From sequence record OL960577.1: DNA of 64,000 bases; one strand, given 5' to 3'. Numbering within the stretch: the stretch's first letter is position 1; each line of letters opens with the position of its first letter. This DNA is from Escherichia phage vB_EcoM_SA35RD. The notes below the pieces were generated by a model. That model made no database searches. It was not told the DNA's origin and saw only the letters and a program-made list of their open reading frames with translations. A program made the position numbers and the translations under genes. Positions 3,601-45,713 of this stretch are shown here, one piece after another.

Positions 3601-3624
3601 TCTTAATTGATTAAATCTTATTTT

Positions 3625-3642
3625 GGGAGACTTCGGTCTCCC
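3625..3642 (+). terminator. Intrinsic terminator hairpin after gene 23
   Basis: gggagaCTTCGgtctccc perfect 7-bp stem with UUCG loop, followed by aTTTTTgg. Confidence 0.7.
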
Positions 3643-3652
3643 ATTTTTGGTT

Positions 3653-3922
3653 TTATTTCTGTGCAATTTTGATGTAAGTTTTCAAAATATTTTGCCAATT
3701 AGGCATACCTTCTTGGACATACGCTGGAGAACCGTCTTTGTTTTTGAATGATGCAAGTTTATCAGTGGCCCAATAACCTTTAGCTCGAGCTTCAGAATCA
3801 ACTTTCATCCATACTTTGTTGAAGGCATTACCATTAACTTTTGCACCATATTTTTCTACTAACTTAACTGCTTCAGCTTCTAGAACTTTTAAAGTATCTC
3901 GTAAGAAACGTGCTTTAGTCAT
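3653..3922 (-). CDS. Hypothetical early protein (89 aa) in the gene 23-24 intergenic slot
   Basis: ORF with own early promoter and SD (GGAGTAAACAAA-ATG); antisense to flanking late genes; no family recognised. Confidence 0.6.
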   Translation of the reverse strand: MTKARFLRDTLKVLEAEAVKLVEKYGAKVNGNAFNKVWMKVDSEARAKGYWATDKLASFKNKDGSPAYVQEGMPNWQNILKTYIKIAQK

Positions 3923-3952
3923 TTTGTTTACTCCTCTGTAGTTGATAAGTCT

Positions 3953-3982
3953 ATAGTATCACATACCAAATACGTTGTAAAC
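3953..3982 (-). promoter_or_regulatory. T4-type early promoter
   Basis: Minus strand GTTTAC, 18-nt spacer, TACTAT; immediately upstream of the 89-aa ORF. Confidence 0.55.
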
Positions 3983-3988
3983 AATCTT

Positions 3989-3996
3989 TATAAATA
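3989..3996 (+). promoter_or_regulatory. Late promoter (TATAAATA) for gene 24
   Basis: Exact TATAAATA about 28 nt upstream of gp24 ATG. Confidence 0.6.
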
Positions 3997-4023
3997 ATCT
4001 ATATCACATAAGGAAAAAATGCA

Positions 4024-5307
4024 ATGAGTAAAATCCAAAAATTATTGCGTGAATCTACAACGTCTACTAGCAACTCAATTGGTCGCCCAAATCTCGTTGC
4101 TTTGACTCGCGCTACGACTAAATTAATATATTCTGACATTGTAGCAACACAAAGAACTAATCAACCTGTTGCTGCTTTTTATGGTATCAAATATCTTAAC
4201 CCAGATAACGAATTCACATTTAAAACTGGTGCTACTTATGCAGGCGAAGCTGGATATGTAGACCGAGAAAAAATTACTGAGCTCACAGAAGAATCAAAAG
4301 TCACACTAAATAAAGGTGATTTTTTCAAATATAATAATATCGTCTATAAAGTGTTAGAAGATACACCATTTGCAGATATTCAAGAAAGTGATCTAGAATT
4401 AGCTCTTCAGATTGCAGTCGTTCATTTAAAGGTACGGTTATTTTCAGATGCAGCGGTAACAAACAAATTTGAAAGCTCTGATAGCGAAATTTCTGATGCA
4501 AGATTCCAGATTAATAAATGGCAAACTTCAGTCAAATCTCGTAAACTTAAAACTGGCCTAACGGTCGAATTAGCGCAAGATTTAGAAGCGAATGGATTTG
4601 ATGCCCCTAACTTCTTAGAAGATTTGCTTGCTACTGAAATGGCAGATGAAATTAATAAAGATATTCTTCAGTCTTTAATTACTGTATCGAAACGTTATAA
4701 AGTTACTGGAATTACTGACACCGGATTTATTGACTTGAGTTATGCATCAGCTCCAGAAGCAGGTCGTTCATTATATCGAATGGTGTGTGAAATGGTATCA
4801 CACATTCAAAAAGAAACAACTTATACTGCAACGTTTTGTGTAGCCTCAGCCCGTGCAGCTGCTATTCTTGCTGCTTCTGGTTGGTTAAAACATAAGCCAG
4901 AAGATGACAAGTATCTTTCACAAAATGCTTATGGATTCTTGGCAAATGGATTACCTCTTTACTGCGATACCAACAGCCCGTTAGATTATGTTATTGTGGG
5001 TGTTGTAGAAAATCTCGGCGAAAAAGAAATTGTAGGGTCCATCTTTTATGCTCCATACACTGAAGGAATAGATTTAGATGACCCGGAACATGTCGGTGCA
5101 TTTAAAGTTGTAGTTGATCCAGAAAGCTTGCAACCGTCTATCGGATTATTGGTTAGATATGCGTTATCAGCAAATCCTTACACAGTAGCAAAAGATGAAA
5201 AAGAAGCGAGAATAATTGATGGCGGGGACATGGATAAAATGGCAGGACGTTCAGACTTGTCTGTTTTATTAGGTGTTAAACTACCAAAAATTATCATCGA
5301 TGAATAA
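4024..5307 (+). CDS. 24: Capsid vertex protein gp24
   Basis: 427 aa, same length as T4 gp24; gp23-paralog-like sequence; position after gene 23. Confidence 0.9.
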   Translation: MSKIQKLLRESTTSTSNSIGRPNLVALTRATTKLIYSDIVATQRTNQPVAAFYGIKYLNPDNEFTFKTGATYAGEAGYVDREKITELTEESKVTLNKGDFFKYNNIVYKVLEDTPFADIQESDLELALQIAVVHLKVRLFSDAAVTNKFESSDSEISDARFQINKWQTSVKSRKLKTGLTVELAQDLEANGFDAPNFLEDLLATEMADEINKDILQSLITVSKRYKVTGITDTGFIDLSYASAPEAGRSLYRMVCEMVSHIQKETTYTATFCVASARAAAILAASGWLKHKPEDDKYLSQNAYGFLANGLPLYCDTNSPLDYVIVGVVENLGEKEIVGSIFYAPYTEGIDLDDPEHVGAFKVVVDPESLQPSIGLLVRYALSANPYTVAKDEKEARIIDGGDMDKMAGRSDLSVLLGVKLPKIIIDE

Positions 5308-5314
5308 AACAAAA

Positions 5315-5330
5315 GGGACCTTACGGTCCC
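5315..5330. terminator. Bidirectional terminator hairpin between gene 24 (+) and rnlB (-)
   Basis: gggaccTTACggtccc flanked by A-run and T-run (aaaa...ttttttt). Confidence 0.6.
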
Positions 5331-5339
5331 TTTTTTTCG

Positions 5340-6338
5340 TTATGATACTAATTCAATCCATGCAGGACGCAGAACATCTTGCACCATTCGGACTAATTCT
5401 TTCTTAACAAGATTCGGATTATCAGATGATGTTAATACAATACCTTCACGAGAAGTTTCTTCCAGAATATCTTGAACAGTCAATCCCATCACTTTGCCAA
5501 AATCTTTTGGCGTTACAGTCCCAATCTTAGAAATCACATTATTAATACGATTTAATGTAACATAACAAGCTAGAACATCAAGCAAGTTTTTGTCAGTTTC
5601 GGTTAATGGAACCTGAGTTTTAATAGGCTTATCAGACTTTTTCTTTTCACTGAATTTAGAGTTCTTGCACTTAATAGCTACACGAGTACCGTTTGGCAGC
5701 CATTTAGGGAAACAGGGCTTCAGAACATAACCTTCTGCCGTATTATCACCAATAACATTAGCATCAAATACACAATTATTTGCTTCGACAAGGTCTTCTG
5801 ACGCAGTAGCATTATAAGCGGCTAAGACGGAATCAAGGTCATTTGGAATCATGATAAGAGAATCAAATGTTCCACGACCAAGCATTGGTGCCATTTTAAA
5901 ACCGAATTCATTACAGAAATCTTGCATTTCATAATCGGTCAAATACGTATTATCACCACTTTCTGTATTGATAAGGATATCGAACACATAAAAATCTTTT
6001 TCACCGTAGTCAACACCTTTCTGGATTCCACCACCGGCGAATTCACCGAATACTTGATATGATACAGCTCGAGCTGTGTACATGAATTCCTGAACGGCTT
6101 TAATAGCTTTATCATACTTCTTGAGTACGATTTCATAACCATAAAAATCTTCTGCTGGAAGAATAGGGCCTGTGCGCTTGGCGCATGTGACGTTGTCACG
6201 TTCAATTATTAACGAGAAGTTGGTCCCATGGATTTTCTCACGTGCTACCCAAACACCGGTAGTCAAACCATTAGTGTAGAGTTTTTCAATAAACTTAGAG
6301 TTGTAGTGGTTTTCAAGACTGCTGTATTTCTTAAACAT
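5340..6338 (-). CDS. rnlB: RNA ligase 2 (Rnl2)
   Basis: 332 aa; N-terminal nucleotidyltransferase motif EKIHGTN with the ligase lysine; size and position as T4 rnlB. Confidence 0.9.
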
Positions 6339-6457
6339 AAATCACCATTATAAATAATAATATCAAAATAATTAGCAGAGACTCTGTCTCCGACCAGATG
6401 TTTAATTTGAATGGATAGAACCTAGATTCATTATACCATCAAAAAATGTAAAGCATA

Positions 6458-6709
6458 TTAGAACTTGATTTCTATCCAATGACCATCACGCTGGTCGTGA
6501 TTAATTTTATACTGAAAGCCATTATCACGTAACCACTGCCCGACTTGCTCAGTGATAGTTAAATCGTTCTTTGACGGGTAGTACGTGAATTGTGTCTGGC
6601 CTTTATCAGCGGCTTTCTCTGCCATCACAGAGAAGTTAGTAATAAAATCACTCAACAAATTAGCTTTAGTGGCCAGTGCCCTTTCTCTTAATTCCTGTGC
6701 AAAACTCAT
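6458..6709 (-). CDS. Hypothetical protein (83 aa), 24.2-like position
   Basis: ORF overlapping the upstream gene by 4 nt; position equivalent to T4 24.2/24.3 region. Confidence 0.55.
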   Translation of the reverse strand: MSFAQELRERALATKANLLSDFITNFSVMAEKAADKGQTQFTYYPSKNDLTITEQVGQWLRDNGFQYKINHDQRDGHWIEIKF

Positions 6710-6906
6710 TTCTTCACCTTTTTGTTAATCAAACGTTTACGGTATACAACTTTTTCTTTTGCTTTAAACTTTGACCGAGCTGTCTCGGCTTTAGTCCATA
6801 GTAATCCAACTTCTTTAGGTTGTAAACCAATTTTTTGAGCAATTTCTACGAATGAAAATCCCGCCTCATGTAATGTATAAACTTCAACTTCAGCTCTCAT
6901 AATCAA
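6706..6906 (-). CDS. Hypothetical small basic protein (66 aa), possible HTH
   Basis: ORF with segment FSFVEIAQKIGLQPKEVG resembling a helix-turn-helix; basic C-terminus. Confidence 0.5.
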   Translation of the reverse strand: MIMRAEVEVYTLHEAGFSFVEIAQKIGLQPKEVGLLWTKAETARSKFKAKEKVVYRKRLINKKVKK

Positions 6907-6981
6907 TCCAGTATTATTTGGTTTGTGCCATTATATACATCAATCTCAAGATGTGTTTTGTATGCTTTAAAAACGAAGAAA

Positions 6982-6995
6982 GGGGCCGAAGCCCC
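6982..6995 (-). terminator. Hairpin downstream of hoc
   Basis: ggggcCGAAgcccc (GGGGCUUCGGCCCC on the minus transcript) followed by a U-rich tract. Confidence 0.45.
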
Positions 6996-7001
6996 TTACG
7001 A

Positions 7002-8132
7002 TTATGGATATGTATAGATGATACCAGTTTCCAAAGCAGTTTTATGGATGATGTATCCATTACGTGATTCTTGAACATCAACTTCCGGATAGTCTTTCAT
7101 CATCTTCTGAAGAGTGTAACGATGCAGGTAGTATTTACTATCTGGATCTTCAGTTTTCCAATCTTTACCTTCTTCAGTCATTTTTTGGATTTCATCCATA
7201 ACCCACCATCCGCACCAGATGTAAGCTGAAGTACGATGTGGAAGAGGATGAACATAAGGTAGTTCACCTTCTGGTTCTGGAGCAACTTTATCAGTTACCT
7301 GAACTTGACCTTCTGCTGTAATAGTTTTTCTATCGTAATCAGTTGCAGTAATAGTTGCAGTAACTTCAATAGTTTGACTTCCAATAGACGAGGTATCAAC
7401 GGTATATACATTAGTTGACCCTTCTACAGGAGAAGAATCTTTCTTCCATGAATAAGTAATTTGTGCTTCTGGTGGTGCATCAGTGACATTAGCAGTAAAT
7501 GTGGCTGAAGCGTCTTGCTGAACATTAATAGAAGGAGGGGTCAACGTAACCTGTGGATTCATTGTCTTCTTATTAACCGTTAATGATACTTCATTCGAAG
7601 TAACTTCCTTTGCATCATAATCTGTCGCAGTTACTTGGGCTACACATTTAATTCTTTTTACTCCATTTGTAGTTGGAGTATAATTAAATGTAGAGTTAGT
7701 TTCTCCACTAACTTGAGAACCGTCAACATACCATTGGTACGTAGCAGATGCACCTGATGGCTTCGAAGCCAAAGCAGCGGTAAATTTAACAGCTGTTCCA
7801 ATTACTCCTGCTGGAGGACTATTGGGAGTTACAGCTAAGGTAGTCGTTTGTGTCTTGTTTTGAACTGTGATGGTTGTAGAAGCTTCTGCTGTTTCAGCTT
7901 CAGCTTCTGGAACTGTATTTGTTGCAACTACTTTAATAGTCTTTTGACCGGCAGGTCCTTTTAGTACATAACTAAAAGTTGCTTCAGCTCCATCTTGCGG
8001 AACATCATCTACAGTCCAAGCATATGTAATAGTTCCACCTCCAGTTTCACCACTGGGAGTAGCAGTAAACTGCTTAGTCTCATCTATAACTCCAGTAGGT
8101 GTTTTAGGAGTTATATCAACTGTAAAAGCCAT
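7002..8132 (-). CDS. hoc: Highly immunogenic outer capsid protein Hoc
   Basis: 376 aa (same as T4 Hoc); repeated Ig-like segments (…TATITATDYD…); conserved C-terminal capsid-binding region. Confidence 0.9.
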   Translation of the reverse strand: MAFTVDITPKTPTGVIDETKQFTATPSGETGGGTITYAWTVDDVPQDGAEATFSYVLKGPAGQKTIKVVATNTVPEAEAETAEASTTITVQNKTQTTTLAVTPNSPPAGVIGTAVKFTAALASKPSGASATYQWYVDGSQVSGETNSTFNYTPTTNGVKRIKCVAQVTATDYDAKEVTSNEVSLTVNKKTMNPQVTLTPPSINVQQDASATFTANVTDAPPEAQITYSWKKDSSPVEGSTNVYTVDTSSIGSQTIEVTATITATDYDRKTITAEGQVQVTDKVAPEPEGELPYVHPLPHRTSAYIWCGWWVMDEIQKMTEEGKDWKTEDPDSKYYLHRYTLQKMMKDYPEVDVQESRNGYIIHKTALETGIIYTYP

Positions 8133-8141
8133 AAGTTATCC

Positions 8142-8810
8142 TTATTTTAATGTTACGAAAGAAGAATTACGAGTTTCACGAATTAGAACTGATCCATCGC
8201 GATTAATATAATAAATTAAGCTAAATAATGTTTGGTGAGCAGAAGCGTGCACAAAACTGGTTGGACGAGATTTCCAATCTGGGGTTTCGGCTATCCATTG
8301 ATAAATCCACCAAGGAACAGTAACATATCCTGGGGCTTTGCCTAATTTAATGAGTGTAGGACTAAAATTTTCAGGCAGAACAAAATTTACTTCTTTATTT
8401 ACTTCTGGCTCAGGCTCTTTTTCAGATTCAACAACCTGAGTAATTGCTTCTTCGAATTTATCATGGTCGAATTCTTTTTCTTGTTCGACAACTTCTAATA
8501 CTTCAACTTGTTCTGTTGGAGAATCAAACAACAGAATAGCTTCTTCTTTAACTTCTTCGTTGGTGAAATTAACACCGTCCACATCATCTGCGGCAGTAAT
8601 TAAATCGGTGATAGATAATCCATCAGTTTCAGGTAATGGTTCATCAGCCAGTGCGTTAAGAGCTTCTTCGATATCAATAACAATATTATCGAATGATTTT
8701 GTTTTCTTAACACTAATGCCAAATTGTTCCGCATATTCAAACAGTTTAGCTTTGGCTTCCTTTTTATCAGAAAGAGCACGTAACTCTTCAATATAGTCTT
8801 TATCGATCAT
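8142..8810 (-). CDS. inh: Inh-like protein (inhibitor of prohead protease)
   Basis: 222 aa acidic protein in the position of T4 inh between hoc and uvsW; assignment by size and synteny. Confidence 0.6.
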   Translation of the reverse strand: MIDKDYIEELRALSDKKEAKAKLFEYAEQFGISVKKTKSFDNIVIDIEEALNALADEPLPETDGLSITDLITAADDVDGVNFTNEEVKEEAILLFDSPTEQVEVLEVVEQEKEFDHDKFEEAITQVVESEKEPEPEVNKEVNFVLPENFSPTLIKLGKAPGYVTVPWWIYQWIAETPDWKSRPTSFVHASAHQTLFSLIYYINRDGSVLIRETRNSSFVTLK

Positions 8811-8823
8811 GATATTTCCTCAT

Positions 8824-8831
8824 TATAAATA
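8824..8831 (+). promoter_or_regulatory. Late promoter (TATAAATA) for uvsW
   Basis: Exact TATAAATA about 30 nt upstream of uvsW ATG. Confidence 0.5.
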
Positions 8832-8860
8832 TAGTTATATTTATTACATGGTAATTTGAC

Positions 8861-10375
8861 ATGACTGACATTAAAGTACATTTTTATGATTTTAGTCACG
8901 TGCGCATTGAATGCGACGAAAGTACGTTTTACGAACTTCGTGACTTTTTTAGCTTTGAAGCTGACGGGTATAAATTTAACCCAAAATATCGCTATGGGAA
9001 CTGGGATGGTAGAATTCGTCTTTTAGATTACAACCGTTTGTTACCATATGGACTTGTAGGACAAATAAAAAAGTTCTGTAACAATATGAGTTATTCTGTA
9101 TGGATTGACCCTAAAATCTTTGAGACTGAAGACCTTACCAGGGAAGATTTTGACTCATGGCTTTCTAAACAAGAAATTTATTCAGGCAACGCCAAAATCG
9201 AACCACATTGGTATCAAAAAGATGCAGTATACGAAGGACTAGTTAATCGTCGTCGAATTTTAAACCTTCCGACATCAGCAGGTAAATCACTAATCCAAGC
9301 ACTTTTAGCTCGGTATTATCTAGAGAACTATGAAGGTAAAATTCTCATTATCGTCCCTACAACAGCATTGACAACCCAGATGGCTAATGATTTTGTTGAT
9401 TATCGCTTGTTTAGTCATTCGATGATTAAGAAAATTGGCGGTGGTGCTGATAAAGCGGACAAATCTAAAAACGACGCTCCAATTATTGTTGGCACCTGGC
9501 AAACGGTAGTTAAGCAGCCTAAAGAATGGTTCTCTCAGTTCGGTATGATGATGAACGATGAATGCCACTTAGCAACAGGCAAAAGTATTTCTTCAATCAT
9601 CTCAGGATTAAATAATTGCATGTTTAAATTCGGTTTATCCGGCTCATTAAGAGACGGAAAAGCCAATGTAATGCAGTACGTAGGTATGTTCGGCGAAATC
9701 TTCCGTCCTGTTAGCACGTCTAAATTAATGGAAGACGGACAGGTAACTGAGCTTAAGATTAATAGTATTTTCCTTCGTTATCCGGACGAATTCACTGTTA
9801 AATTAAAAGGTAAAACATACCAAGAAGAAGTTAAAATTATTACCGGACTAAAACGTCGTACAAAGTGGATTGCTCAACTTTCAGTCAAATTGGCTAAGAA
9901 AGACGAGAACGCCTTTGTAATGTTTAAACACGTTACACACGGTAAAGAAATATTTGAAGCTATTAAAGAGCTTGGATACGAAAAAGTTTATTACGTATCA
10001 GGTGAAGTTGATACTGAAACACGTAATGCGCTTAAAGTCATGGCAGAAAATGGTAAAGGCATTATTATTGTCGCATCATATGGAGTATTCTCTACTGGTA
10101 TTTCAGTCAAGAATCTTCATCATGTTATTTTTGCCCATGGTGTTAAATCAAAAATTATCGTACTTCAAACCGTAGGTCGTGTGCTTCGTAAGCACGGTTC
10201 TAAAGCTGTTGCTACAGTTTGGGATCTCATAGATGACGCAGGTGTAAAACCTAAATCATTAAATACTAAAAAGAAGTATACTCATCTTAATTACTTGTTA
10301 AAACACGGTATTGATCGTATCCAACGTTACGCTGATGAGAAATTTAACTATGTAATGAAAACAATTAATTTATAA
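8861..10375 (+). CDS. uvsW: UvsW DNA/RNA helicase (SF2)
   Basis: 504 aa; N-terminus MTDIKVHFYDFSHVRIECDESTFYELRDFF like T4 UvsW; Walker A (PTSAGKS) and DECH box. Confidence 0.9.
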   Translation: MTDIKVHFYDFSHVRIECDESTFYELRDFFSFEADGYKFNPKYRYGNWDGRIRLLDYNRLLPYGLVGQIKKFCNNMSYSVWIDPKIFETEDLTREDFDSWLSKQEIYSGNAKIEPHWYQKDAVYEGLVNRRRILNLPTSAGKSLIQALLARYYLENYEGKILIIVPTTALTTQMANDFVDYRLFSHSMIKKIGGGADKADKSKNDAPIIVGTWQTVVKQPKEWFSQFGMMMNDECHLATGKSISSIISGLNNCMFKFGLSGSLRDGKANVMQYVGMFGEIFRPVSTSKLMEDGQVTELKINSIFLRYPDEFTVKLKGKTYQEEVKIITGLKRRTKWIAQLSVKLAKKDENAFVMFKHVTHGKEIFEAIKELGYEKVYYVSGEVDTETRNALKVMAENGKGIIIVASYGVFSTGISVKNLHHVIFAHGVKSKIIVLQTVGRVLRKHGSKAVATVWDLIDDAGVKPKSLNTKKKYTHLNYLLKHGIDRIQRYADEKFNYVMKTINL

Positions 10376-35270: not shown

Positions 35271-36449
35271 TTAGAAATATTTTTTGTATGAATTGATTAC
35301 ATTTTGGTCTACATCATTATCAATTTGTGCGACAAGATAAGAACTGATTTCAACTTCCTGAGGAGCTGCTTGAACTAAATCAGAGTTCAGATATTCACGA
35401 ATCCAAGGATACGGATGCTTGGTCGGAGCATCAGTGATTGGACACGGCAAACCACACTGTTTCATACGAGACACAGTCAAGTAATCAACAAAAGCACACA
35501 TACTCTGCGTATTGATACCTGGACATGTACCGTCTTTAAAGAGGTGTGCAGCCCATTCCTTCTCTTGTCTATTTACTTCCATAAAAATATCAACTGCTTC
35601 TTGTTCACATTCTTTAGCAATTTGAACCCACTCATCACCATCAGTACCAGATTGAAGTTGACGGATAATGTACTGAGTACCCTTGAGGTGGAGTTGTTCG
35701 TCACGAGCAATGAACTTCATAATCTTTGCATTACCTTCCATAATTTCCATATTTTTATGGAAGTTGAAAGTACATGCAAATGATACGTAAAAACGAATAG
35801 CTTCTAAGGCGTTGATAACATGCAAACAGAGATAAAGAGACTTCATTAATGCACGTTTACATTCTTCCACATGCATAAGACTATTTGAATATGCATCCAA
35901 ATCATATTCATTTTCGGAAAAACATTTAAAAATTTCTTTAGCATTTTCCCATTCACGTGTTTTAACTAGAACATCATCATAATATTTGCCGATTGATTCC
36001 GCACGTTTCATAATTGCTTCATCTAATACAATCTCATCAAATACCTTCGATGGATCAGTATAAAGATTTCGCATGATATGAGTATATGAACGAGAGTGAA
36101 TGGTTTCACTGAATGTCCATGTAGCAACCCATGTATCTAATGAAGGGTCGGAAAGCAATGCCATAAGTACCGCAGATGGTGCCCTGCCTTGGATAGAATC
36201 CAATAATGATTGATACTTAAGGTTGTTCGTAAAGATGTTCTGTTGGAACTGTGGAAGCTTATTGAACTGCGCAGAGTCCAACATCAAGTTTACCTCTTCA
36301 GGGCGCCAAAAAAACGACAATTGCTTTTCAATAAGCTCTTCAAAAACTTTATGGCGTTGAATATCGTAACGCGCAAGGCCAAGACCGGAACCAAAGAACA
36401 TTGGTTCATTCAAAACATCAACTTTTTGGGTATTAAAAACTGTACTCAT
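35271..36449 (-). CDS. nrdB: Ribonucleotide reductase class Ia small subunit
   Basis: 392 aa continuous ORF (no intron); di-iron ligand context (…EAIRFYVSFACTF…, …ARDEQLHLKGTQYI…). Confidence 0.95.
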   Translation of the reverse strand: MSTVFNTQKVDVLNEPMFFGSGLGLARYDIQRHKVFEELIEKQLSFFWRPEEVNLMLDSAQFNKLPQFQQNIFTNNLKYQSLLDSIQGRAPSAVLMALLSDPSLDTWVATWTFSETIHSRSYTHIMRNLYTDPSKVFDEIVLDEAIMKRAESIGKYYDDVLVKTREWENAKEIFKCFSENEYDLDAYSNSLMHVEECKRALMKSLYLCLHVINALEAIRFYVSFACTFNFHKNMEIMEGNAKIMKFIARDEQLHLKGTQYIIRQLQSGTDGDEWVQIAKECEQEAVDIFMEVNRQEKEWAAHLFKDGTCPGINTQSMCAFVDYLTVSRMKQCGLPCPITDAPTKHPYPWIREYLNSDLVQAAPQEVEISSYLVAQIDNDVDQNVINSYKKYF

Positions 36450-36499
36450 TATATTCTCTCAATAGTGACTCATCCATGAGTCAATTATAAACAAAATTC

Positions 36500-38755
36500 T
36501 TAAAGCTTACAAGCGGAGCAATCTTCAGCTTTAGGTGTTTCTAATTCATAGTCATCTGTACCAGAACCATCTCGAGTGTTATGATAGTAAAGGTTCTTAC
36601 CACCAAAGTACCAGAAGTAAAGCAAGTCATCAAGCATTACAGACATTGGCACTTTGCCTTTCTCAAAGACTGAAGGGTCGTAGTATGTATTAGCAGAAGC
36701 AGATTGGCACACCCATTTTAACATGATAACAACTTGTGTCAGATAAGGCTTATTACCTTTCTTAGCGAGTTTCCACGCATAGTCATAAAGACCCATGTTG
36801 TGTTCAATATTAGGAACTACTTGACGGAAATTACCTTCTTTAGATTCTTTAATACTTACCGGGCCACGAGGTGGTTCAATACCATTTGTGCTATTTGAGA
36901 CCTGGCTGCTTGATTCGCATGGCATGAGAGCACTGAGTGTACTGTTACGAATCCCGTGTTCTTTAAGTTCGGCTCGTAGTTCTTCCCAATCACATACATA
37001 GTTTGGGGCTGCGATTTGGTCAATCTTTTTATTGTACCAGTCGATAGGTAATTCGCCTCGAGACCATTTAGTGTCTGAATAATACTCGCAACGTCCTTTT
37101 TCTTTGGCGAGTTTGATTGATGCTTTGATAAGGCCATATTGCAATCTCTCAAACAATTCATGAGTCAAATCGTTAGCGTCTTCATATGAAGCGAAGTTAG
37201 AAGCTAACCATGCAGCATAGTTCGTAACACCAACACCAAGATTACGACGCTTTTTGGCTTTTAAAGCTTCTGGAACCGGATAATCTTGATAGTCTAACAG
37301 GTTATCAAGTGCACGTACTTGTACTTCGGCAAGTTCATTAATTTTATCTTGGTCTTGCCAATCAAATTTATCTAACACGAATGCAGATAATGTGCATAAA
37401 CCAATTTCAGCATCAGGACCATTCACATCATTAGTTGGAATAGCGATTTCACAACATAAGTTACTCTGACGAATTGGAGCTTTTTCACGAATAAATGGAG
37501 TGTAGTTATTCGTGTTATCAACAAACTGTGGATAAATTCGAGCAGTGCCAGAACGTTCAGTCATGAACAATTCAAAGAGTTCTAGTGCTTTGATTCTTTT
37601 CTTTCTGATTGTTGGGTCTTTTTCAGCTTTCTCATAAAGCTCACGGAATTTATCTTGATCTTCAAAGAACGAGTAGTATAGTTCGCCTGACATTTCGTGA
37701 GGGCTAAATAAAGTAATATAATCATTTTTACCAAGGCGTTCCATCATAAGGTCATTAATCTGAATTCCGTAGTCCATATGTCGAATACGGTTTTCATCCA
37801 CGCCTTTGTTATTTTTCAGAACTAATAGGTTCTCTACTTCTAAGTGCCACATCGGATAATACGCTGTAGCAGCACCACCACGAATACCACCTTGAGAACA
37901 AGATTTTACTGCAGTTTGGAAATGTTTCCAGAATGGAATAACACCCGTATGTCGAACTTCACCCACACCGATCTTAGAACCTTCTGCACGAAGCATACCA
38001 ACGTTGATACCGATACCAGCTCGTTTAGAAATATATTCAATAATTGATGCTGAAGTTTTGTTAATAGATTTTAACGAATCACCAGCTTCAATAACTACAC
38101 AACTAGAGAACTGGCGAGTTGGAGTACGAGCACCTGCCATAATTGGGGTTGGCAATGAAACTTGATGAGTAGAAACGGCATCATAAAAACGAATAATATG
38201 TTTCAAACGGTCATGAGTTTCGTCTTGGTGTAAGGCCATGCCAATAGCCATGATAGCAAACTGGGGAGTTTCATAAATCTTCCCAGTTGTTTTATCTTTA
38301 ACTAGATATTTTTCTTTAAGCTGCATAGCACCAGCATAAGTCAGGTCAAAGTCTCGTTCATGTTTAATCTGTGAATCGAGATAAATGATTTCTTCTGCTG
38401 AATATTGAGACAACAGCTCAGGGTCATATTTGCCTTCATTAACACAATAAGAAATATGGTCGATAAAAGCAGGCGGTTCAAACTGCCCATATACATCTTT
38501 ACGAAGTGCAAACATTAGCCCTTTGGCGGCGACATACTGATAATCAGGTTCTTCGACAGAAATCGAGTTAGCTGCAACTTTAATACAAATCTTCTGGATA
38601 TCTTTGGTGCTCATCCCGTCAACAAGATGGGTCTTAATTTCTTCGTACAATTCATATGGGTCAATTTGTGTTCCTTCACATTGCCAGGTCAGAACTTGGA
38701 TAATTTTCTGTGCATCAAAATTTTGGGATACGCCACTGCTCTTAGTTACTTGCAT
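36500..38755 (-). CDS. nrdA: Ribonucleotide reductase class Ia large subunit
   Basis: 751 aa; ATP-cone N-terminus, catalytic NLCCEI / C-terminal Cys pair (CSACKL). Confidence 0.95.
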   Translation of the reverse strand: MQVTKSSGVSQNFDAQKIIQVLTWQCEGTQIDPYELYEEIKTHLVDGMSTKDIQKICIKVAANSISVEEPDYQYVAAKGLMFALRKDVYGQFEPPAFIDHISYCVNEGKYDPELLSQYSAEEIIYLDSQIKHERDFDLTYAGAMQLKEKYLVKDKTTGKIYETPQFAIMAIGMALHQDETHDRLKHIIRFYDAVSTHQVSLPTPIMAGARTPTRQFSSCVVIEAGDSLKSINKTSASIIEYISKRAGIGINVGMLRAEGSKIGVGEVRHTGVIPFWKHFQTAVKSCSQGGIRGGAATAYYPMWHLEVENLLVLKNNKGVDENRIRHMDYGIQINDLMMERLGKNDYITLFSPHEMSGELYYSFFEDQDKFRELYEKAEKDPTIRKKRIKALELFELFMTERSGTARIYPQFVDNTNNYTPFIREKAPIRQSNLCCEIAIPTNDVNGPDAEIGLCTLSAFVLDKFDWQDQDKINELAEVQVRALDNLLDYQDYPVPEALKAKKRRNLGVGVTNYAAWLASNFASYEDANDLTHELFERLQYGLIKASIKLAKEKGRCEYYSDTKWSRGELPIDWYNKKIDQIAAPNYVCDWEELRAELKEHGIRNSTLSALMPCESSSQVSNSTNGIEPPRGPVSIKESKEGNFRQVVPNIEHNMGLYDYAWKLAKKGNKPYLTQVVIMLKWVCQSASANTYYDPSVFEKGKVPMSVMLDDLLYFWYFGGKNLYYHNTRDGSGTDDYELETPKAEDCSACKL

Positions 38756-39051
38756 ATGTCCTCTATATTAAATTCGTCTTTAAAAAGTTTATTAACCACT
38801 AGAGCTATTATATCACCATGACAGGCTTTTGGTTTACATGTGCATCCCAGACGCATACCACGTAAAGGTTCTAGATGAGCTTTTGTGATTTCTCCACACT
38901 TAATTCTCTTAATAAAATCCTTTTTGAAAAGCTCAATAGCTTCTTCTCGGGAAGAGGCATCCTTGCCTACATAATTTCCCCAGAATGTGCCACGATGAAT
39001 ATTAACATCAAAATCGGATTTATATTTATTCACAACGCGGCACATTTTCAT
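38746..39051 (-). CDS. Hypothetical protein (101 aa), possibly DUF4326-like
   Basis: Cys/His pattern (…GCTCKPKACHGD…); position as T4 nrdA.1; family call is tentative. Confidence 0.5.
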   Translation of the reverse strand: MKMCRVVNKYKSDFDVNIHRGTFWGNYVGKDASSREEAIELFKKDFIKRIKCGEITKAHLEPLRGMRLGCTCKPKACHGDIIALVVNKLFKDEFNIEDICK

Positions 39052-39305
39052 TACATGTCCTCTGCAATAATTTCTTCGTATTCTTTAGGAGTCAAGACCG
39101 TGATATTAAAATAAACCAACGGTTCTTTTTCTATACCGAATCCACCACAGAATTCACGATATTCATAAATTCGTTCATGTGAATAACAAATGAATCGTTC
39201 ACCTTTAACTGTGATTTCACTATTTGGTGAAGGGATATCCAGTTCACTTGGATTTTTCATTTCAAAAATTGTGGTGCCATATGAATTAATAAAACGTAAA
39301 ATCAT
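39051..39305 (-). CDS. Hypothetical protein (84 aa)
   Basis: ORF between td and nrdA.1-like; position as T4 nrdA.2. Confidence 0.55.
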   Translation of the reverse strand: MILRFINSYGTTIFEMKNPSELDIPSPNSEITVKGERFICYSHERIYEYREFCGGFGIEKEPLVYFNITVLTPKEYEEIIAEDM

Positions 39306-39306
39306 T

Positions 39307-40992
<1,686 letters not shown>

Positions 40993-41825: not shown

Positions 41826-42728
41826 TTATAGACCAGCTAACAGGTCATCGAGGTCGCCATCATCTGAAGATGAGGTAGAGCTCATGAAGTCATCTTCAGT
41901 TTTTGCAGAACTAAAGGCTTCCATGTCTTTATCAAAATCGTCAAGGTCAGAAGCAACTTTATCTGCAACAGAAGCTGCGGCAGCTGCTGCACCACCAAGA
42001 GCAGCAGTACCAAGAACCTTAGCGAAAGATTCATTTAATTTTTCAAAGGATTTGAACTGGTCTTTAGCCGTCAAAGTAGTAAGGTCTACCATCTGATCAT
42101 ATAGTTCTTTCTGGAATGCTTCGTCATTAATACGAGGAATTTCAGATTGACCTAAGAATTTAGATTCATCGTAGTTGCTAAAACCGGAAACCTGCTTAGC
42201 TTTCAGAACGAAGTTAGCACCTTCAAACGGACAAGTAACATCAACTGGAGTTTCACCCATTTCGGTATCAACAGCAATCATTGCATTGATTTTGTCCCAA
42301 ATCTTTTTACCGAAACGATATTTAAATACTTTACCTTCGTTATCTGGAGCTTGAGGGTCTTTAACAACCAGAATATTAGCCCAATAAGAAGTTTTACGTT
42401 TCAGTTGAGAATATTCAGTTTTGTTGGTATTGTACAGGTCATTTTTACTAATGTACTGACATACAGGACAAGAGTCGTAATCACCATGTGTAGAAGAGCA
42501 ATTTTCAATATACCATTTACCATTTTTCTTGAAACCGTGGTTAACAAGAATTGCAAATGGTAGTGCATCATCAGTTTTTGCTGGCAAGAAACGAATTACC
42601 GCTTGACCATTACCTGATGCATCTAGCTTCAGCTTCCATTCGCCTTTATCTTCTGAAGAGAAACCTTTGTTACCGTTCAGTTTAGCCATTTGAGCAGCGA
42701 GGTCAGCAGTAGATTTACGTTTAAACAT
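41826..42728 (-). CDS. 32: Single-stranded DNA-binding protein gp32
   Basis: 300 aa; [36 protein letters not shown]; zinc-binding Cys/His region; acidic C-terminus. Confidence 0.95.
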
Positions 42729-42815
42729 TATATTTACCTTTATTTAGATTATTTAATTTATTTACAGTTGGTTGCTACGACACTTATACCTCGTAGCTGG
42801 TATAATTTATTTATA
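42729..42815 (-). promoter_or_regulatory. Gene 32 5' leader: late promoter, hairpin/pseudoknot and A/U-rich translational operator
   Basis: Minus strand TATAAATA (42808-42815), stem GCUACGA/UCGUAGC (42774-42797), then unstructured AAAUAAAUUAAAUAAUCUAAAUAAAGGUAAAUAUA-AUG. Confidence 0.6.
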
Positions 42816-42844
42816 AAGTAATTTTAACACACAAGAAATAAAGC

Positions 42845-43498
42845 TTAATACTTACATGATTTGATTGTTTCTATGAACAATTTCTTAGCAACATTTCCAT
42901 CGATTTGAAGTATTTTTCGATATGCCTTTAATTTGGTAGAATAATTTTGCCAGACTAAGTTATCGGTGAGTTCGTCGTGCTTATCTATAATATTCAAAAA
43001 TGAGTCCAACAATAAGAAAGTTTCAAACGAAATTATATTGCTTTGTAGCAATTTAAATATGTAGCTCGACTGAACGTTGTTATTATAATCAAATATCTCT
43101 TGAAGCGCACTAACTTCAACTTTCTTACTGAAATAGTAGATGTTACGTACGTCTTCAGCAAACGTCTCTTTAGCTTGTTTGAGACGTCCAATATATTCCC
43201 TATAGAAAACTAATGCATCAGCGTCTGATATCTCACCAATCCATGCGTCTTGGTTAGCAACTAAGTTGCTTATGAATATCAAGGTGAGTTCCTTCAATTT
43301 ATATTTCTCTGCTAGTTTTTCAAAGAAATATTTATCTCGGCGTTTTTGATACGCATTATCCGAAACACGCATGCACCAGTTATATTTGATTACGTCATAC
43401 CGACCACCAAAGTGGTTTTTGCACATCAAGTATAGTTTATATACTGATTTACCATTAATATAACGTTCTCCATCAGGAGGCATGCGTATTTTAATCAT
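42845..43498 (-). CDS. 59: Helicase loader gp59
   Basis: 217 aa (same as T4 gp59); N-terminus MIKIRMPPDGERYINGKSVYKLYLMCKNHFGGRYD. Confidence 0.9.
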   Translation of the reverse strand: MIKIRMPPDGERYINGKSVYKLYLMCKNHFGGRYDVIKYNWCMRVSDNAYQKRRDKYFFEKLAEKYKLKELTLIFISNLVANQDAWIGEISDADALVFYREYIGRLKQAKETFAEDVRNIYYFSKKVEVSALQEIFDYNNNVQSSYIFKLLQSNIISFETFLLLDSFLNIIDKHDELTDNLVWQNYSTKLKAYRKILQIDGNVAKKLFIETIKSCKY

Positions 43499-44174
43499 AG
43501 TTCCATCCAGGCCATTTTGAAGATTTAAGTCTATATGTAACTAAAGACGCAGAAATATTAAAAACATTTGAAACTTCTTTACACGAGGCGTATTTTATAC
43601 CATCAATAATTATAGGTTTTTGTTTTTTAATAGTTCTTTCTTTAGAATGCGGCTTTGAATTTGCTATTCTAAGAGCTTCTTTGGTTGAATCAGGCATCGG
43701 CTTATTCGTTTTTCGCCCTTTTCGGACTTTACTCAAGGCCAATTTGTGAGCTTCAGATAGTTTCTTACCCTTATTAGGTGACGGTATTTTTCTTTCTAGT
43801 CTTGTTTTAGATACTTTAGCCTTAGTCTCTTCAGATCTAGGTTTACCTAATTTAGAAAGTGAAATAGACCTTTTAGCTTCATCACTTTGTTTTTTACCAG
43901 GACCACCTTTACCACCGGGAACTAAGTTATAAGTATCATCTCGCAAAACAAAATCTTCATTAACCAATTCTGCTTCTTTTTTATAGGCGTCCTTGTCATT
44001 ATCATATTCATAAAGAATTTCGGTATAAAAATTTTTTAGTCCATATTTAGCTTTGGCCGCTAATATAGCGCGGCCTGATCCAATATACCAATCTTTCTCT
44101 TTATGTTTTTTGTGTACGCCTATATAAATTTTACCATTTATTTTATTGGTAGTTTTATACACAACGTATTTCAT
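43491..44174 (-). CDS. GIY-YIG homing endonuclease (Seg-like), free-standing
   Basis: 227 aa; canonical N-terminal GIY-YIG (YVVYKTTNKINGKIYIGVH…R…E…N) and basic C-terminal DNA-binding region; overlaps ends of genes 59 and 33. Confidence 0.85.
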   Translation of the reverse strand: MKYVVYKTTNKINGKIYIGVHKKHKEKDWYIGSGRAILAAKAKYGLKNFYTEILYEYDNDKDAYKKEAELVNEDFVLRDDTYNLVPGGKGGPGKKQSDEAKRSISLSKLGKPRSEETKAKVSKTRLERKIPSPNKGKKLSEAHKLALSKVRKGRKTNKPMPDSTKEALRIANSKPHSKERTIKKQKPIIIDGIKYASCKEVSNVFNISASLVTYRLKSSKWPGWNYD

Positions 44175-44509
44175 AATAAGAAATCTAACGTATTAGTTTT
44201 TTCACCACGAGCAACTGATGGGCGAAGCATGTTTTCGTCAATTGCTTCGCTTGTAATTTTTTCAACAATTCCTGTAGGAATAAATTTAGCAAATTGTGTT
44301 TCTGGAATAGAATTTTCTTCCAAGAAAGCAGTTGTTGCTTCTAAATAAGACATACCAAATTGTTCAACCATGGATTCGATAATGAATCCGTTTTCTTGTC
44401 GGTCAAGTAATTTAGCGATATCATCTTTATCGTGTTTTACTGCTAATTCTTGTTCAGATAAACCGGCCTCATCAACCGGTTTAATATCACTTAGTGAAAA
44501 CTGTGTCAT
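44171..44509 (-). CDS. 33: Late transcription accessory protein gp33
   Basis: 112 aa (as T4 gp33); C-terminus …NTLDFLL. Confidence 0.9.
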   Translation of the reverse strand: MTQFSLSDIKPVDEAGLSEQELAVKHDKDDIAKLLDRQENGFIIESMVEQFGMSYLEATTAFLEENSIPETQFAKFIPTGIVEKITSEAIDENMLRPSVARGEKTNTLDFLL

Positions 44510-44756
44510 AAAGCTCGACTACCTCTTCGTTTTCAGCTTCAAATTGATCACGAGCGTCTTTATGATAAAGAGCTAACAAACGATTAAACATTTTTCCATC
44601 GACGCCAAGCTCTTCTTTAGCACGAGTACGAATGTCTTTAATCAGTTCATTATAACCAGAAATTTTAAGTTTGTTATCGGAAGCTTCCTTGACTAGTTTA
44701 GCCAGTTCTTCACCATGCACATCTTGATTAAATTCAACTGCTTCTTTCTTAGCCAT
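44487..44756 (-). CDS. dsbA: Double-stranded DNA-binding protein DsbA
   Basis: 89 aa from MAKKEAVE… with SD GAGGT (T4 DsbA 89 aa); upstream Met rejected. Confidence 0.75.
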   Translation of the reverse strand: MAKKEAVEFNQDVHGEELAKLVKEASDNKLKISGYNELIKDIRTRAKEELGVDGKMFNRLLALYHKDARDQFEAENEEVVELYDTVFTK

Positions 44757-44763
44757 GTTTACC

Positions 44764-45681
44764 TCAGAATTCATTAATTACACTTGTTAATTTAGAAAGA
44801 CCGGATTTTACAAAGTATGAATAAATCTTGCCTTTAGGTTGTTGTTTATACGAGTTATAATACTCTATAATGGTTGAAGCAATATTATCAGGGATATAAT
44901 CAAAATCAATGAGAACCAAATTTTCTTGATACCGTTTATATTCTTCTGCACTTAATAATACTTCAGCTTGAGAACGGTCGTTAGCAATTGCTTCAATAAT
45001 TGATGTTTTCATGCTTGGAGTTCGTTCACCTTCAACTCGAGTAAACCAGAAGTCACCACGAACTCGAACAGATGCAACACCATCCTTACGGTCACCTTTA
45101 AGAATTTTAGTCATGCAATCAATTTCAGCAGAACCGTTCTTAATTTTAACCCATTTTTTCTGTGGTGGCGACCACTGTTTAACGTTAGGATATTTGTGTA
45201 ATTGTGTAAAGTCACCATCTGATGCAACAATACATACCTTATGTCCAGCTAATGACAAATATTTAGTTAATACACCGATATGGTCATCCGCTTCATACTT
45301 GTCAATATCCATTACAACGTATGGCATGTATTTCTTAATCTCATCAACAACTTGATGGAGTGCAGTAAAATATCCTTCCCAATCCCACTTTGAAGCTTCA
45401 CGATCGGTTTTACGATTTTTCTTGTAATAGTAAGCAAAATCACGTCGCCAATAACCTGAAGTAGCATTATCCATACACAATACAAATTTTGTATAGCCTT
45501 GCTTACGGAACAACACGACGTTTTTACGAATTGAATTCAAGATTACATGGCGAACCATTGGAACAGTAATTTTATCACCGTCTTCAAAGTTGTTTAATGC
45601 GGCTGCCAACGCAATGTTACTAAAGTCGGCAAGTGCAATACCTTCTTTGTAATCTTCATCCAACATCATTTCTAAATCCAT
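44764..45681 (-). CDS. rnh: RNase H (5'-3' exonuclease / flap endonuclease)
   Basis: 305 aa (same as T4 RNase H); acidic catalytic clusters (DGDF, DDHIGVL). Confidence 0.9.
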   Translation of the reverse strand: MDLEMMLDEDYKEGIALADFSNIALAAALNNFEDGDKITVPMVRHVILNSIRKNVVLFRKQGYTKFVLCMDNATSGYWRRDFAYYYKKNRKTDREASKWDWEGYFTALHQVVDEIKKYMPYVVMDIDKYEADDHIGVLTKYLSLAGHKVCIVASDGDFTQLHKYPNVKQWSPPQKKWVKIKNGSAEIDCMTKILKGDRKDGVASVRVRGDFWFTRVEGERTPSMKTSIIEAIANDRSQAEVLLSAEEYKRYQENLVLIDFDYIPDNIASTIIEYYNSYKQQPKGKIYSYFVKSGLSKLTSVINEF

Positions 45682-45713
45682 ATGAACCTCTTGTTCAGTT
45701 AGTCAACTTGTCT

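Follow-up and report, generated by a model that had tools for sequence, protein, structure and literature searches.

The DNA analysed was a window of 64,000 nucleotides from Escherichia phage vB_EcoM_SA35RD (sequence record OL960577.1), a T4-like phage of the genus Mosigvirus (Tevenvirinae). An open reading frame (ORF) of 227 aa was found on the minus strand at 43491..44174, stop codon included, between two essential genes of the same strand. Upstream lies gene 33, encoding the late-transcription coactivator (44171..44509; Pfam Trans_coact, 3.5e-26), with a C-terminal TNTLDFLL that is kept across genera. Downstream lies gene 59, encoding the helicase loader (42845..43498; T4_Gp59_N, 1.9e-49, and T4_Gp59_C, 7.8e-44), which is likely part of the homing site discussed below. 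The products gp32, DsbA and FRD2 were also identified nearby by Pfam searches.

The ORF overlaps both neighbours, by 4 nt for gene 33 and 8 nt for gene 59, in line with the short overlaps described in the initial annotation. Its ATG (44174-44172) shares an ATGA with the TGA of gene 33 (44173-44171), located at 44171..44174 on the minus strand by alignment of occupied and empty sites. At the other end, gene 59 starts with its ATG at 43498-43496, so that the TAA of the ORF (43493-43491) falls 8 nt into gene 59. In this overlap (43491..43498, minus strand) the ORF ends in ..TAT GAT TAA and gene 59 begins with ATG ATT AAA, the stop codon of the ORF being built from codons 2-3 of gene 59. Where gene 59 begins with ATGATAACG, as in CHI14/L020 and L007, the inserted gene extends 26 nt into gene 59.

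The deduced protein matched PHROG 314 ‘homing endonuclease’ (6.6e-56) and, over its full length, NCBIfam TIGR01453 ‘group I intron endonuclease’ (73.9 bits, cut-off 56.05). Homologs with an E-value of 1e-5 or less numbered 627. Residues 183-226 matched Pfam PF20987, I-TevI_DNA-bd (8.3e-12), and residues 175-225 matched the sequence of PDB entry 1i3j (E 7e-4). The Pfam SegE_GIY-YIG and NUMOD3 profiles scored below their cut-offs on this protein, with 22.4 bits (cut-off 25) and 18 bits (E 0.0027, cut-off 20.4) respectively. An AlphaFold model was obtained with a pLDDT of 87.3, and about 87-96 in the catalytic domain. In a Foldseek search, this model matched the catalytic domain (1mk0; TM 0.65, target-normalised) and the DNA-binding domain (1i3j) of I-TevI, both with a probability of 1.00; 1ln0 was matched too.

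Three regions can be distinguished, all on the minus strand. The catalytic GIY-YIG domain (aa 1-88; 43911..44174) contains VVY6, IYIG17-19, H21, Y30-x-GSG, K43, E67, YN82-83 and GG87-88, which are invariant columns in a family alignment of 32-34 sequences. Its modelled topology is strand 2-10, strand 16-23, helix 35-44, strand 49-57 and helix 60-70; the GIY...YIG motif pair is present, with Y6, Y17 and G19 invariant and the first two strands modelled. It is followed by a basic linker (aa 89-186; 43617..43910), which shows NUMOD3-like repeats and lacks a zinc finger; 32 of its 98 residues are Lys or Arg (pI 10.9, 0 Cys), and helices are modelled at 98-108, 115-128, 141-151 and 162-173. The linker carries a separate C-terminal module, an I-TevI-type helix-turn-helix DNA-binding domain (aa 187-227; 43494..43616), assigned from PF20987 and from 1i3j by sequence and fold. 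Both the GIY-YIG endonuclease of 227 aa and the basic DNA-binding region of the initial annotation are borne out by these data. The gene is not intron-encoded as I-TevI proper is: neither flanking gene is interrupted, each overlaps the ORF, and the linker has no Cys. A free-standing GIY-YIG homing endonuclease gene (HEG) of I-TevI/Seg architecture is therefore supported. The GenBank label is already ‘homing endonuclease’, and no paper on a 33/59 HEG was found in the searchable corpus. The gene is a new, uncharacterised member of a well-known class, for which cleavage and homing are predicted by analogy.

An arginine equivalent to R27 of I-TevI was looked for by MAFFT alignment, with the family profile and in the model, and was absent. 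The ‘krwkrh’ segment of I-TevI, containing R27, was placed as an insertion by both MAFFT and the profile. The model has a single helix between strands 2 and 3 and the R27-bearing helix is missing; the family alignment has no conserved Arg column, R35 being variable. E67 and N83 are invariant and align with I-TevI E75 and N90, with a register slip of one residue. Of the Arg, Glu and Asn placed downstream of the motif in the initial annotation, Glu67 and Asn83 were thus recovered and the Arg was not. Lack of Arg or Glu had been named there as a reason to abandon the assignment; taken literally, this applies to the Arg and not to the invariant Glu. Alignment revealed the same Arg-less pattern in SegC of T4, a free-standing endonuclease listed as active (PMC2988022), so the missing Arg gives no argument for inactivity. 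As judged from the alignments, the pattern is a trait of the subfamily and not a lesion of the SA35RD copy.

Pairwise alignment with the HEG-less phage G53 gave one single gap of 676 columns. On the gene 59 side of the gap, three SNPs were present in the first 101 nt, and on the gene 33 side 125 nt were identical. The empty site reads ...TTATTATGA|TTAAAATACGC... and the occupied site is longer by exactly 676 bp. TATGA being present at both ends, the insert can be placed in six equivalent registers, of which 43499..44174 (minus strand) is used here. In HEG-less genomes, the ATGA of the gene 33 overlap both ends gene 33 and starts gene 59, and in G53 and T4 the two genes have a direct overlap of 4 nt. 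Among 22 diverse T4-like loci, 21 had no HEG at 33/59, and 19 of these showed the direct 4-nt overlap; the empty junction is therefore most simply the ancestral state. On this comparison, the HEG is a scarless insertion of 676 bp into the ancestral ATGA overlap. Its base composition gave no foreign signal, with a GC content of 0.327 and 0.334-0.343 in the flanks.

The HEG now uses the original translation initiation context of gene 59: the 125 nt upstream are identical, and it is coupled to gene 33 through the same ATGA. No T4 late-promoter motif TATAAATA was found on the minus strand from 42816 to 45700. Sigma-70-like sites upstream of and inside the HEG were not above chance (18, against 12.9 ± 3.7 in shuffled sequences), and RNA hairpins over either start codon were no better than in shuffled sequences (z from -0.7 to +0.15). 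The gene matches the class of promoter-less cassettes formed by segC, segF and segG (PMC2988022). As a compact example of its kind, the cassette brings along neither a promoter nor a start context nor a stop codon.

Of 169 matching records, about 150 at 95% identity or more, 27 carried the HEG, representing 24 distinct phages. In the HEG-less records the match was split in two and covered 65%. The ICTV species Mosigvirus mar005p1 includes phages with the gene (JK42 and WFbE185) and phages without it (MM02, APCEc01 and JK36). At the same junction the HEG is present in Dhakavirus LQ5 and absent from IME08, JS10 and MX01, and present in Winklervirus CHI14 and CBH8 and absent from X20. It was also found there in Karamvirus KMB20, where the 132-aa GenBank annotation suggested a decayed copy; an intact ORF of 199 aa was found instead. 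The homologs at 33/59 in these three genera are 46-61% identical, and the metagenomic contigs L005-L009 carry the HEG at this junction as well. Presence/absence polymorphism is clear in Dhakavirus and Winklervirus, and may tentatively be extended to Karamvirus. The comparison of the 59-33 junction proposed in the initial annotation thus revealed polymorphism, 27 of about 150 close records carrying the gene. The HEG does not, therefore, belong to the universal core, membership of which would have spoken against a mobile element; HEG-less close relatives exist.

With a probability of about 80%, the ORF is a Seg-type free-standing GIY-YIG homing endonuclease gene specific for the 33|59 junction of T4-like phages. 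By analogy with I-TevI and SegA-G, the protein would be produced from the rnh-dsbA-33-59 polycistronic message by termination-reinitiation. During mixed infection, the helix-turn-helix and the NUMOD3-like linker would bind the uninterrupted 33/59 junction of a HEG-less relative, and the tethered GIY-YIG domain would then make a double-strand break nearby. Recombinational repair from the HEG-carrying genome would copy the cassette, with a variable length of 33/59 flank, into the recipient. The site is split by the insertion itself, which probably renders the carrier genome immune; no flanking SNP separates genomes with and without the HEG. Marker exclusion may likewise affect genes 59/33/32, for which SegG and SegF offer a reasonable parallel.

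The search for SNPs marking co-conversion or immunity covered about 1 kb on either side in nine genomes with and seven without the HEG, and none was fixed. Polymorphisms common to both groups were found as near as 19 nt from the insert, and in the population data linkage to the HEG allele class was limited to the nearest 20-45 nt of gene 59. A CGGAG motif (CNNNG-type), 26 nt into gene 59, varies by the synonymous SNP 43472 and does not track presence of the HEG.

The foremost alternative, which we consider improbable, is that of an old resident, acquired at the 33/59 junction before several genera of the Tevenvirinae split from each other, which is no longer or rarely mobile and is inherited vertically. 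The patchiness would then stem from precise deletion via short direct repeats and from ordinary homologous recombination, and the gene would be maintained by purifying selection on a function unrelated to homing, such as shutting out competitors, a DNA-binding or regulatory role, or the coupling of gene 59 translation. Several data agree with this. A direct repeat brackets the insert, of 8-9 nt (ATGATTAAA) in other genera and of 5 nt in Mosigvirus, and could be a route to precise loss. No co-conversion tract was detected in the nine and seven genomes mentioned above. The HEG is as diverse as its flanks or more so (pi 3.5%; in Mosigvirus pS 0.12, against 0.04-0.11), which speaks against a sweep in recent times. 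Between genera, the HEG (52-61% aa identity) diverges in step with gp33 (58-72%). With this diversity and gp33-like divergence, long vertical residence and occasional loss could account for a large part of the distribution, and frequent homing would not be needed. Against immobility, most T4-like lineages, T4 included, are uninterrupted, with the 21 of 22 empty loci, and several flanking haplotypes that carry the HEG also occur without it. Contig L005 is a chimera: its catalytic half is 99-100% identical to the Karamvirus type, and its DNA-binding tail is 75% identical to the Dhakavirus type and only 47% to the Karamvirus type. HEG segments therefore cross genus-level lineages. In addition, every invariant of the catalytic core of the subfamily has been retained.

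It is very improbable that the ORF is an inactive or decaying HEG remnant, kept because its deletion would disturb the gene 59 start. The absence of the canonical Arg would fit, as would phage AV116, which was isolated as viable with a frameshifted copy, but the Arg-less site is a family trait common to the listed-active SegC, and the ORF is intact in eight of nine Mosigvirus copies and in all other genera examined. Moreover, gene 59 works without the cassette in HEG-less genomes. The dN/dS of the HEG is about 0.1 (0.11 as the mean over pairs, 0.078 for the window copy against SSE1), with 0.027-0.059 for the flanking genes, and the two main alleles differ by 25 synonymous and eight non-synonymous changes; the ORF is under purifying selection. 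A chance or mis-annotated ORF, non-coding or part of a neighbouring gene, can be dismissed in view of the profile match of 6.6e-56, the confident two-domain model, the 627 homologs and the purifying pattern at codon level.

Beyond the assignment as a homing endonuclease gene of the 33|59 junction, it is possible, and is put forward here tentatively, that the 33/59 HEGs form a distinct, long-lived Seg lineage for which all of the following would hold jointly. The target would be among the best-conserved short sequences in the Tevenvirinae and would join the clamp-binding C-terminus of gp33 to the gp59 start. The genes would move across genera, carrying 33/59 alleles along, and would be retargeted or adapted by swaps of the DNA-binding module, as in the L005 chimera. 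By taking over the gene 59 start, the HEG would have secured both its expression and its retention, gene 59 being translationally coupled to it. Finally, an Arg-less GIY-YIG domain would cut DNA, with His21 or Tyr30 possibly in place of R27.

The 33/59 HEG leaves the current understanding of HEG biology unchanged. In co-infections by T-even-type phages, free-standing HEGs act on essential replication genes by marker exclusion and co-conversion, and in this way influence both gene flow and competition; the 33|59 junction adds a defined, uncharacterised site of predicted homing. The gene is also a usable model of the Arg-less, SegC-type GIY-YIG active site. Natural pairs with and without the HEG have already been isolated (JK42 or WFbE185 with JK36, MM02 or APCEc01; CHI14 with X20), and cleavage mapping and crosses are therefore straightforward; Bas45 of the BASEL collection is also among the available material.

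The protein shares the overall design of I-TevI, in which a GIY-YIG domain at the N-terminus is joined by an extended linker to a helix-turn-helix at the C-terminus, and the tails align in sequence (..ISxxLVTYRxKSxKW..). The identity is only 27-30%. I-TevI is encoded in the td intron of T4, whereas the 33/59 HEG is free-standing; I-TevI has a zinc finger (Cys4) in its linker and a first helix with the catalytic R27, whereas the 33/59 HEG has neither, its linker containing 0 Cys.

In T4, segG lies between genes 32 and 59, and genes 59 and 33 overlap directly; segD and segE are located at 23/24 and inh/uvsW (PMC2988022). These places had been given correctly in the initial annotation, as had the lack of a HEG in all three slots of the window. 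The 32|59 slot is a gap of 116 nt and the inh|uvsW slot one of 50 nt, and the 23|24 slot (3601-4023) contained no HEG-like ORF and gave no tblastn match. No HEG remnants were found elsewhere in the window by tblastn with five HEG probes, which covered GIY-YIG types well and HNH types only via a shared DNA-binding tail.

SegG of T4, which cleaves gene 32 of T2, is found in the same neighbourhood, one gene away, in a slot (32/59) that differs from 33/59. Like the 33/59 HEG, it belongs to the 33-59-32 transcription unit as a cassette lacking a promoter; marker exclusion and co-conversion are known for SegG (PMC2988022). SegG is not an ortholog of the 33/59 HEG, as the identity in the alignment is about 21-22% and the C-terminal half is different. 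Dhakavirus LQ5 has a segG-like gene as well as the 33/59 HEG; the two are therefore independent elements. Of the earlier proposal of an independent or relocated insertion, independence from segG stands, and a relocated segG is ruled out by the identity of about 22% and by the presence of both genes in LQ5.

SegH of RB3 and other T-even-type phages shows a tblastn identity of about 33-35% over the full length; its match adjoins nrdG, and SegH and ‘SegD-like’ genes are found at loci other than 33/59. In GenBank, the Shf125875 copy has been labelled ‘SegH-like’ and the CHI14 copy ‘segD’ by the depositors; these names are based on similarity and do not denote orthology.

The nearest T4 paralog is SegC, with 43% identity over 120 aa and 40% in the alignment. 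Both proteins have the motifs YxGxH, D-x-Y-x-GSG, KYG..NF, E..V, YN and GG, and segC is likewise a promoter-less cassette overlapping its upstream ORF (PMC2988022). The sites differ, genes 5.1/5.3 for SegC and 33/59 for the HEG described here. The T4 SegC ORF is short (140 aa) and has no I-TevI-type helix-turn-helix tail, whereas the 33/59 HEG carries this tail.

A 227-aa ORF lies on the - strand of the window at 43491-44174, in the gene order frd.2 - 32 - 59 - ORF - 33 - dsbA - rnh, with gene 34 following on the + strand. Pfam assigned the neighbouring genes, with matches to gp59 (1.9e-49 and 7.8e-44), gp33 (3.5e-26), gp32 (9.8e-61) and DsbA (5.6e-37). The start of the ORF shares ATGA with the stop of gene 33, and its TAA falls 8 nt within gene 59. 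Coordinates, length, motif string and overlaps in the initial annotation were all found to be right on re-examination of the sequence. Its description of the ORF as a free-standing GIY-YIG homing endonuclease gene (HEG) was supported by matches to PHROG 314 ‘homing endonuclease’ (6.6e-56), to NCBIfam TIGR01453 ‘group I intron endonuclease’ (73.9 bits over residues 4-224, curated cut-off 56.05 bits) and to I-TevI structures in Foldseek. Residues 183-226 matched Pfam I-TevI_DNA-bd (8.3e-12), while Pfam SegE_GIY-YIG and NUMOD3 gave sub-cut-off matches only. Many GenBank records already label the gene, as ‘homing endonuclease’, ‘Seg-like’, ‘SegH-like’ or ‘segD’; a literature search returned no paper on a 33/59 HEG or on the target or distribution of one.

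The HEG is present in some Mosigvirus phages and absent from others. A megablast search with window 42700-44600 gave matches in 169 phage records, and in about 150 of these the identity was at least 95%. The whole query was covered in 27 records (24 distinct phages), the remaining records giving a two-piece match with 65% coverage, equal to 676 missing bp. HEG-containing phages belong to at least four ICTV species (mar005p1, utam, JS09 and 25307), and species mar005p1 is itself mixed, with the HEG in JK42 and WFbE185 and without it in MM02, APCEc01 and JK36. The presence/absence comparison proposed for the 59-33 junction thus revealed polymorphism (27 of 169 records with the HEG), which rules out a universal core gene at this position. 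Phage PaulHMueller/Bas45 (MZ501098) carries Tequatrovirus in its taxonomy line; in the 32-34 region, HEG included, it shares about 97% identity with Mosigvirus genomes.

The insertion is exact. In the HEG-less Mosigvirus G53, genes 33 and 59 overlap by ATGA, and alignment with the window gave a single gap of exactly 676 columns at ...TTCTTATTATGA|TTAAAATACGCATGCC.... On the gene 33 side 125 nt are identical, so the HEG sits behind the translation start context of gene 59 of HEG-less phages; on the gene 59 side there are 3 differences in the first 101 nt. The stop of the HEG is made from codons 2-3 of gene 59 (ATG ATT AAA, read ..T ATG ATT AA as TAT GAT TAA). In homologs from other genera the HEG start, ATGATTAA(A/G), is the same as the start of gene 59, and an 8-9-nt direct repeat therefore flanks the insert there. 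The Mosigvirus HEG copy has lost the ATT codon (MKY.. versus MIKY..), which cuts the repeat to 5 nt, TATGA. In phage CHI14 (and the identical locus L020) and in metagenomic contig L007, gene 59 starts with ATGATAACG; no stop is borrowed, and the HEG extends 26 nt into gene 59.

The same junction is occupied in other genera. The closest non-Mosigvirus homolog (56% identity) is that of phage LQ5 (OR677401), also between genes 33 and 59 with identical 4-nt and 8-nt overlaps, and every clade member examined on its contig, with 46-61% identity to the window protein, was found at this junction. LQ5 has in addition a 209-aa segG-like gene between 59 and 32 (locus L004, 4318-4947; MSILNIVYWLEF...YYYIGSK), so that differing GIY-YIG HEGs flank its gene 59 on both sides. 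The LQ5 flanks are Dhakavirus-like; among records with this type of flank, four contain the HEG and about 45, including JS10, IME08 and MX01, are without it at 93-95% identity. In Winklervirus, CHI14 and CBH8 have the HEG and X20 does not. Karamvirus KMB20 (Enterobacter phage vB-EclM_KMB20, OL828291) has an intact 199-aa HEG (locus L050, 597-1196) whose start overlaps the stop of gene 33; the GenBank entry under-calls it as a 132-aa ‘hypothetical protein’, an annotation error. KMB19 matched over gene 59 only, and its lack of the HEG is less certain. In a diverse T4-like sample of 22 IMG/VR loci, the HEG was present in one (L020). A direct 4-nt 33/59 overlap was seen in 19 of the 22, as well as in T4, and in loci L023 and L029 a few nt separate the end of gene 33 from gene 59.

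Across about 1 kb to each side of the insert, no SNP was fixed between nine Mosigvirus genomes with the HEG and seven without it, and polymorphisms common to both groups came as near to the insert as 19-50 nt (43472, 43454, 43451 and 43445). The cassette is therefore carried on several flanking haplotypes, and self-immunity cannot derive from a flanking substitution; most simply, the insertion would itself confer it by splitting the recognition site. The two main HEG allele classes differ by up to 6.5% in nucleotides and about 3% in protein. The dN/dS of the HEG was 0.11 as a mean over pairs and 0.078 for the window versus SSE1, compared with 0.059 for gp59, 0.038 for gp33 and 0.027 for rnh, and the ORF is kept by selection. 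HEG diversity in Mosigvirus is not below that of the flanks, which speaks against a single recent sweep and favours a prolonged presence at intermediate frequency. In phage AV116 (OR352946) a 1-nt insertion beside window 43866 shifts the frame after about residue 103, and GenBank annotates only a C-terminal ORF of 138 aa; this could be real decay or a sequencing error. Within 41826-42844, which spans gene 32 and the 32-59 spacer, gene 32 was far more diverse in the nine HEG-containing genomes (pi 6.5%, maximum 11.6%) than in the seven others (pi 1.0%), and alleles at 42705-42760 fall into separate classes; a sampling effect could account for this, as could a mosaic boundary close to the HEG.

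Between genera, HEG identity (52-61%) is similar to that of gp33 (58-72%) and below that of gp59 (72-81%), so a large part of its history could be old. The main rival explanation, which we regard as rather improbable, makes the HEG an old resident, now inherited mostly vertically and lost via the short direct repeats. The HEG on ENA contig ERZ14207130 NODE_4 (2501-3196) is a clear chimera: the first 96 or so residues, the catalytic half, have 99-100% identity to the Karamvirus type (KMB20 and metagenomic contig L008), and the last 48, the DNA-binding tail, share 75% with Dhakavirus LQ5 but only 47% with KMB20; the linker has one extra repeat. Segments of the HEG thus do cross genus-level lineages, and the chimera indicates that lineages exchange DNA-binding modules.

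The analysis shows the architecture, the exact insertion anatomy, the polymorphism, the fidelity to one site in different genera, purifying selection and the exchange of modules; for the homing mechanism that we prefer, I-TevI and T4 SegA-G serve as models (PMC2988022). The HEG would be expressed from the rnh-dsbA-33-59 message, coupled to gene 33; its helix-turn-helix and linker would bind the intact 33/59 junction, a double-strand break would be made nearby, and repair would copy the cassette plus flanking markers into the recipient. On the - strand no late-promoter motif was found between the late promoters of gene 32 (42808-42815) and gene 34, sigma-70-like sites were not in excess at the locus, and RNA structure at either start did not go beyond chance. 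On these searches the HEG fits the ‘promoter-less cassette’ class of segC, segF and segG (PMC2988022).

Within the 64-kb window vB_EcoM_SA35RD is HEG-poor. Neither segD nor segE is present at 2032-10375 (23, 24, hoc, inh, uvsW), and these T4 slots are empty, as the initial annotation had stated. The 23|24 spacer (3601-4023), where T4 has segD, holds on the opposite strand a - strand ORF of about 95 aa (MTKARFLRDTLKVLEAEAVK...) without similarity to the HEG probes, and the gene 24 late promoter TATAAATA at 3989-3996. At 35271-40167 (nrdB, nrdA, td), td is uninterrupted, the 50-nt gap between nrdB and nrdA holds no mobE-type gene, and no HNH gene adjoins nrdA. In the relatives AV116, F27 and a20, td contains an intron that bears an I-TevI-like ORF, and SSE1, a20 and AV116 have an HNH HEG beside nrdA.

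A confident AlphaFold2 model (pLDDT 87.3, from a 32-sequence alignment) had as top Foldseek matches in the PDB the I-TevI DNA-binding domain (1i3j) and catalytic domain (1mk0; TM 0.65, normalised to target), both with probability 1.00. Residues 89-186 are strongly basic (32 of 98 K+R, pI 10.9) and contain no cysteine; the zinc finger of I-TevI is therefore absent. Over 32-34 aligned homologs, Y6, T9, K15, Y17, G19, H21, Y30, G32, G34, A40, K43, G45, F49, E67, Y82, N83, G87 and G88 are invariant; Y6, Y17, E67 and N83 correspond to I-TevI Y6, Y17, E75 and N90, with a one-residue register slip at the Glu. The catalytic module had been called canonical, which holds for the Glu and Asn but not for the downstream Arg: neither MAFFT nor the family profile gave a counterpart of I-TevI Arg27, both placing the I-TevI ‘krwkrh’ segment as an insertion relative to the HEG family. 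In the model a single helix (35-44) separates strand 2 from strand 3, at the place where I-TevI has in its sequence an extra segment with R27, and R35 of the HEG is not conserved. The nearest T4 paralog, SegC (43% identity over 120 aa), has the same Arg-less motif set and is listed as an active free-standing endonuclease (Edgell/Gibb/Belfort review, PMC2988022), so the missing Arg is a trait of a SegC-type subfamily and no sign of a dead copy in the window. The 33/59 member is new to the literature as searched and belongs to a thoroughly known class of elements; its borrowing of both start and stop, its SegC-type core without the Arg and its fidelity to one site across genera are neat, unsurprising details.
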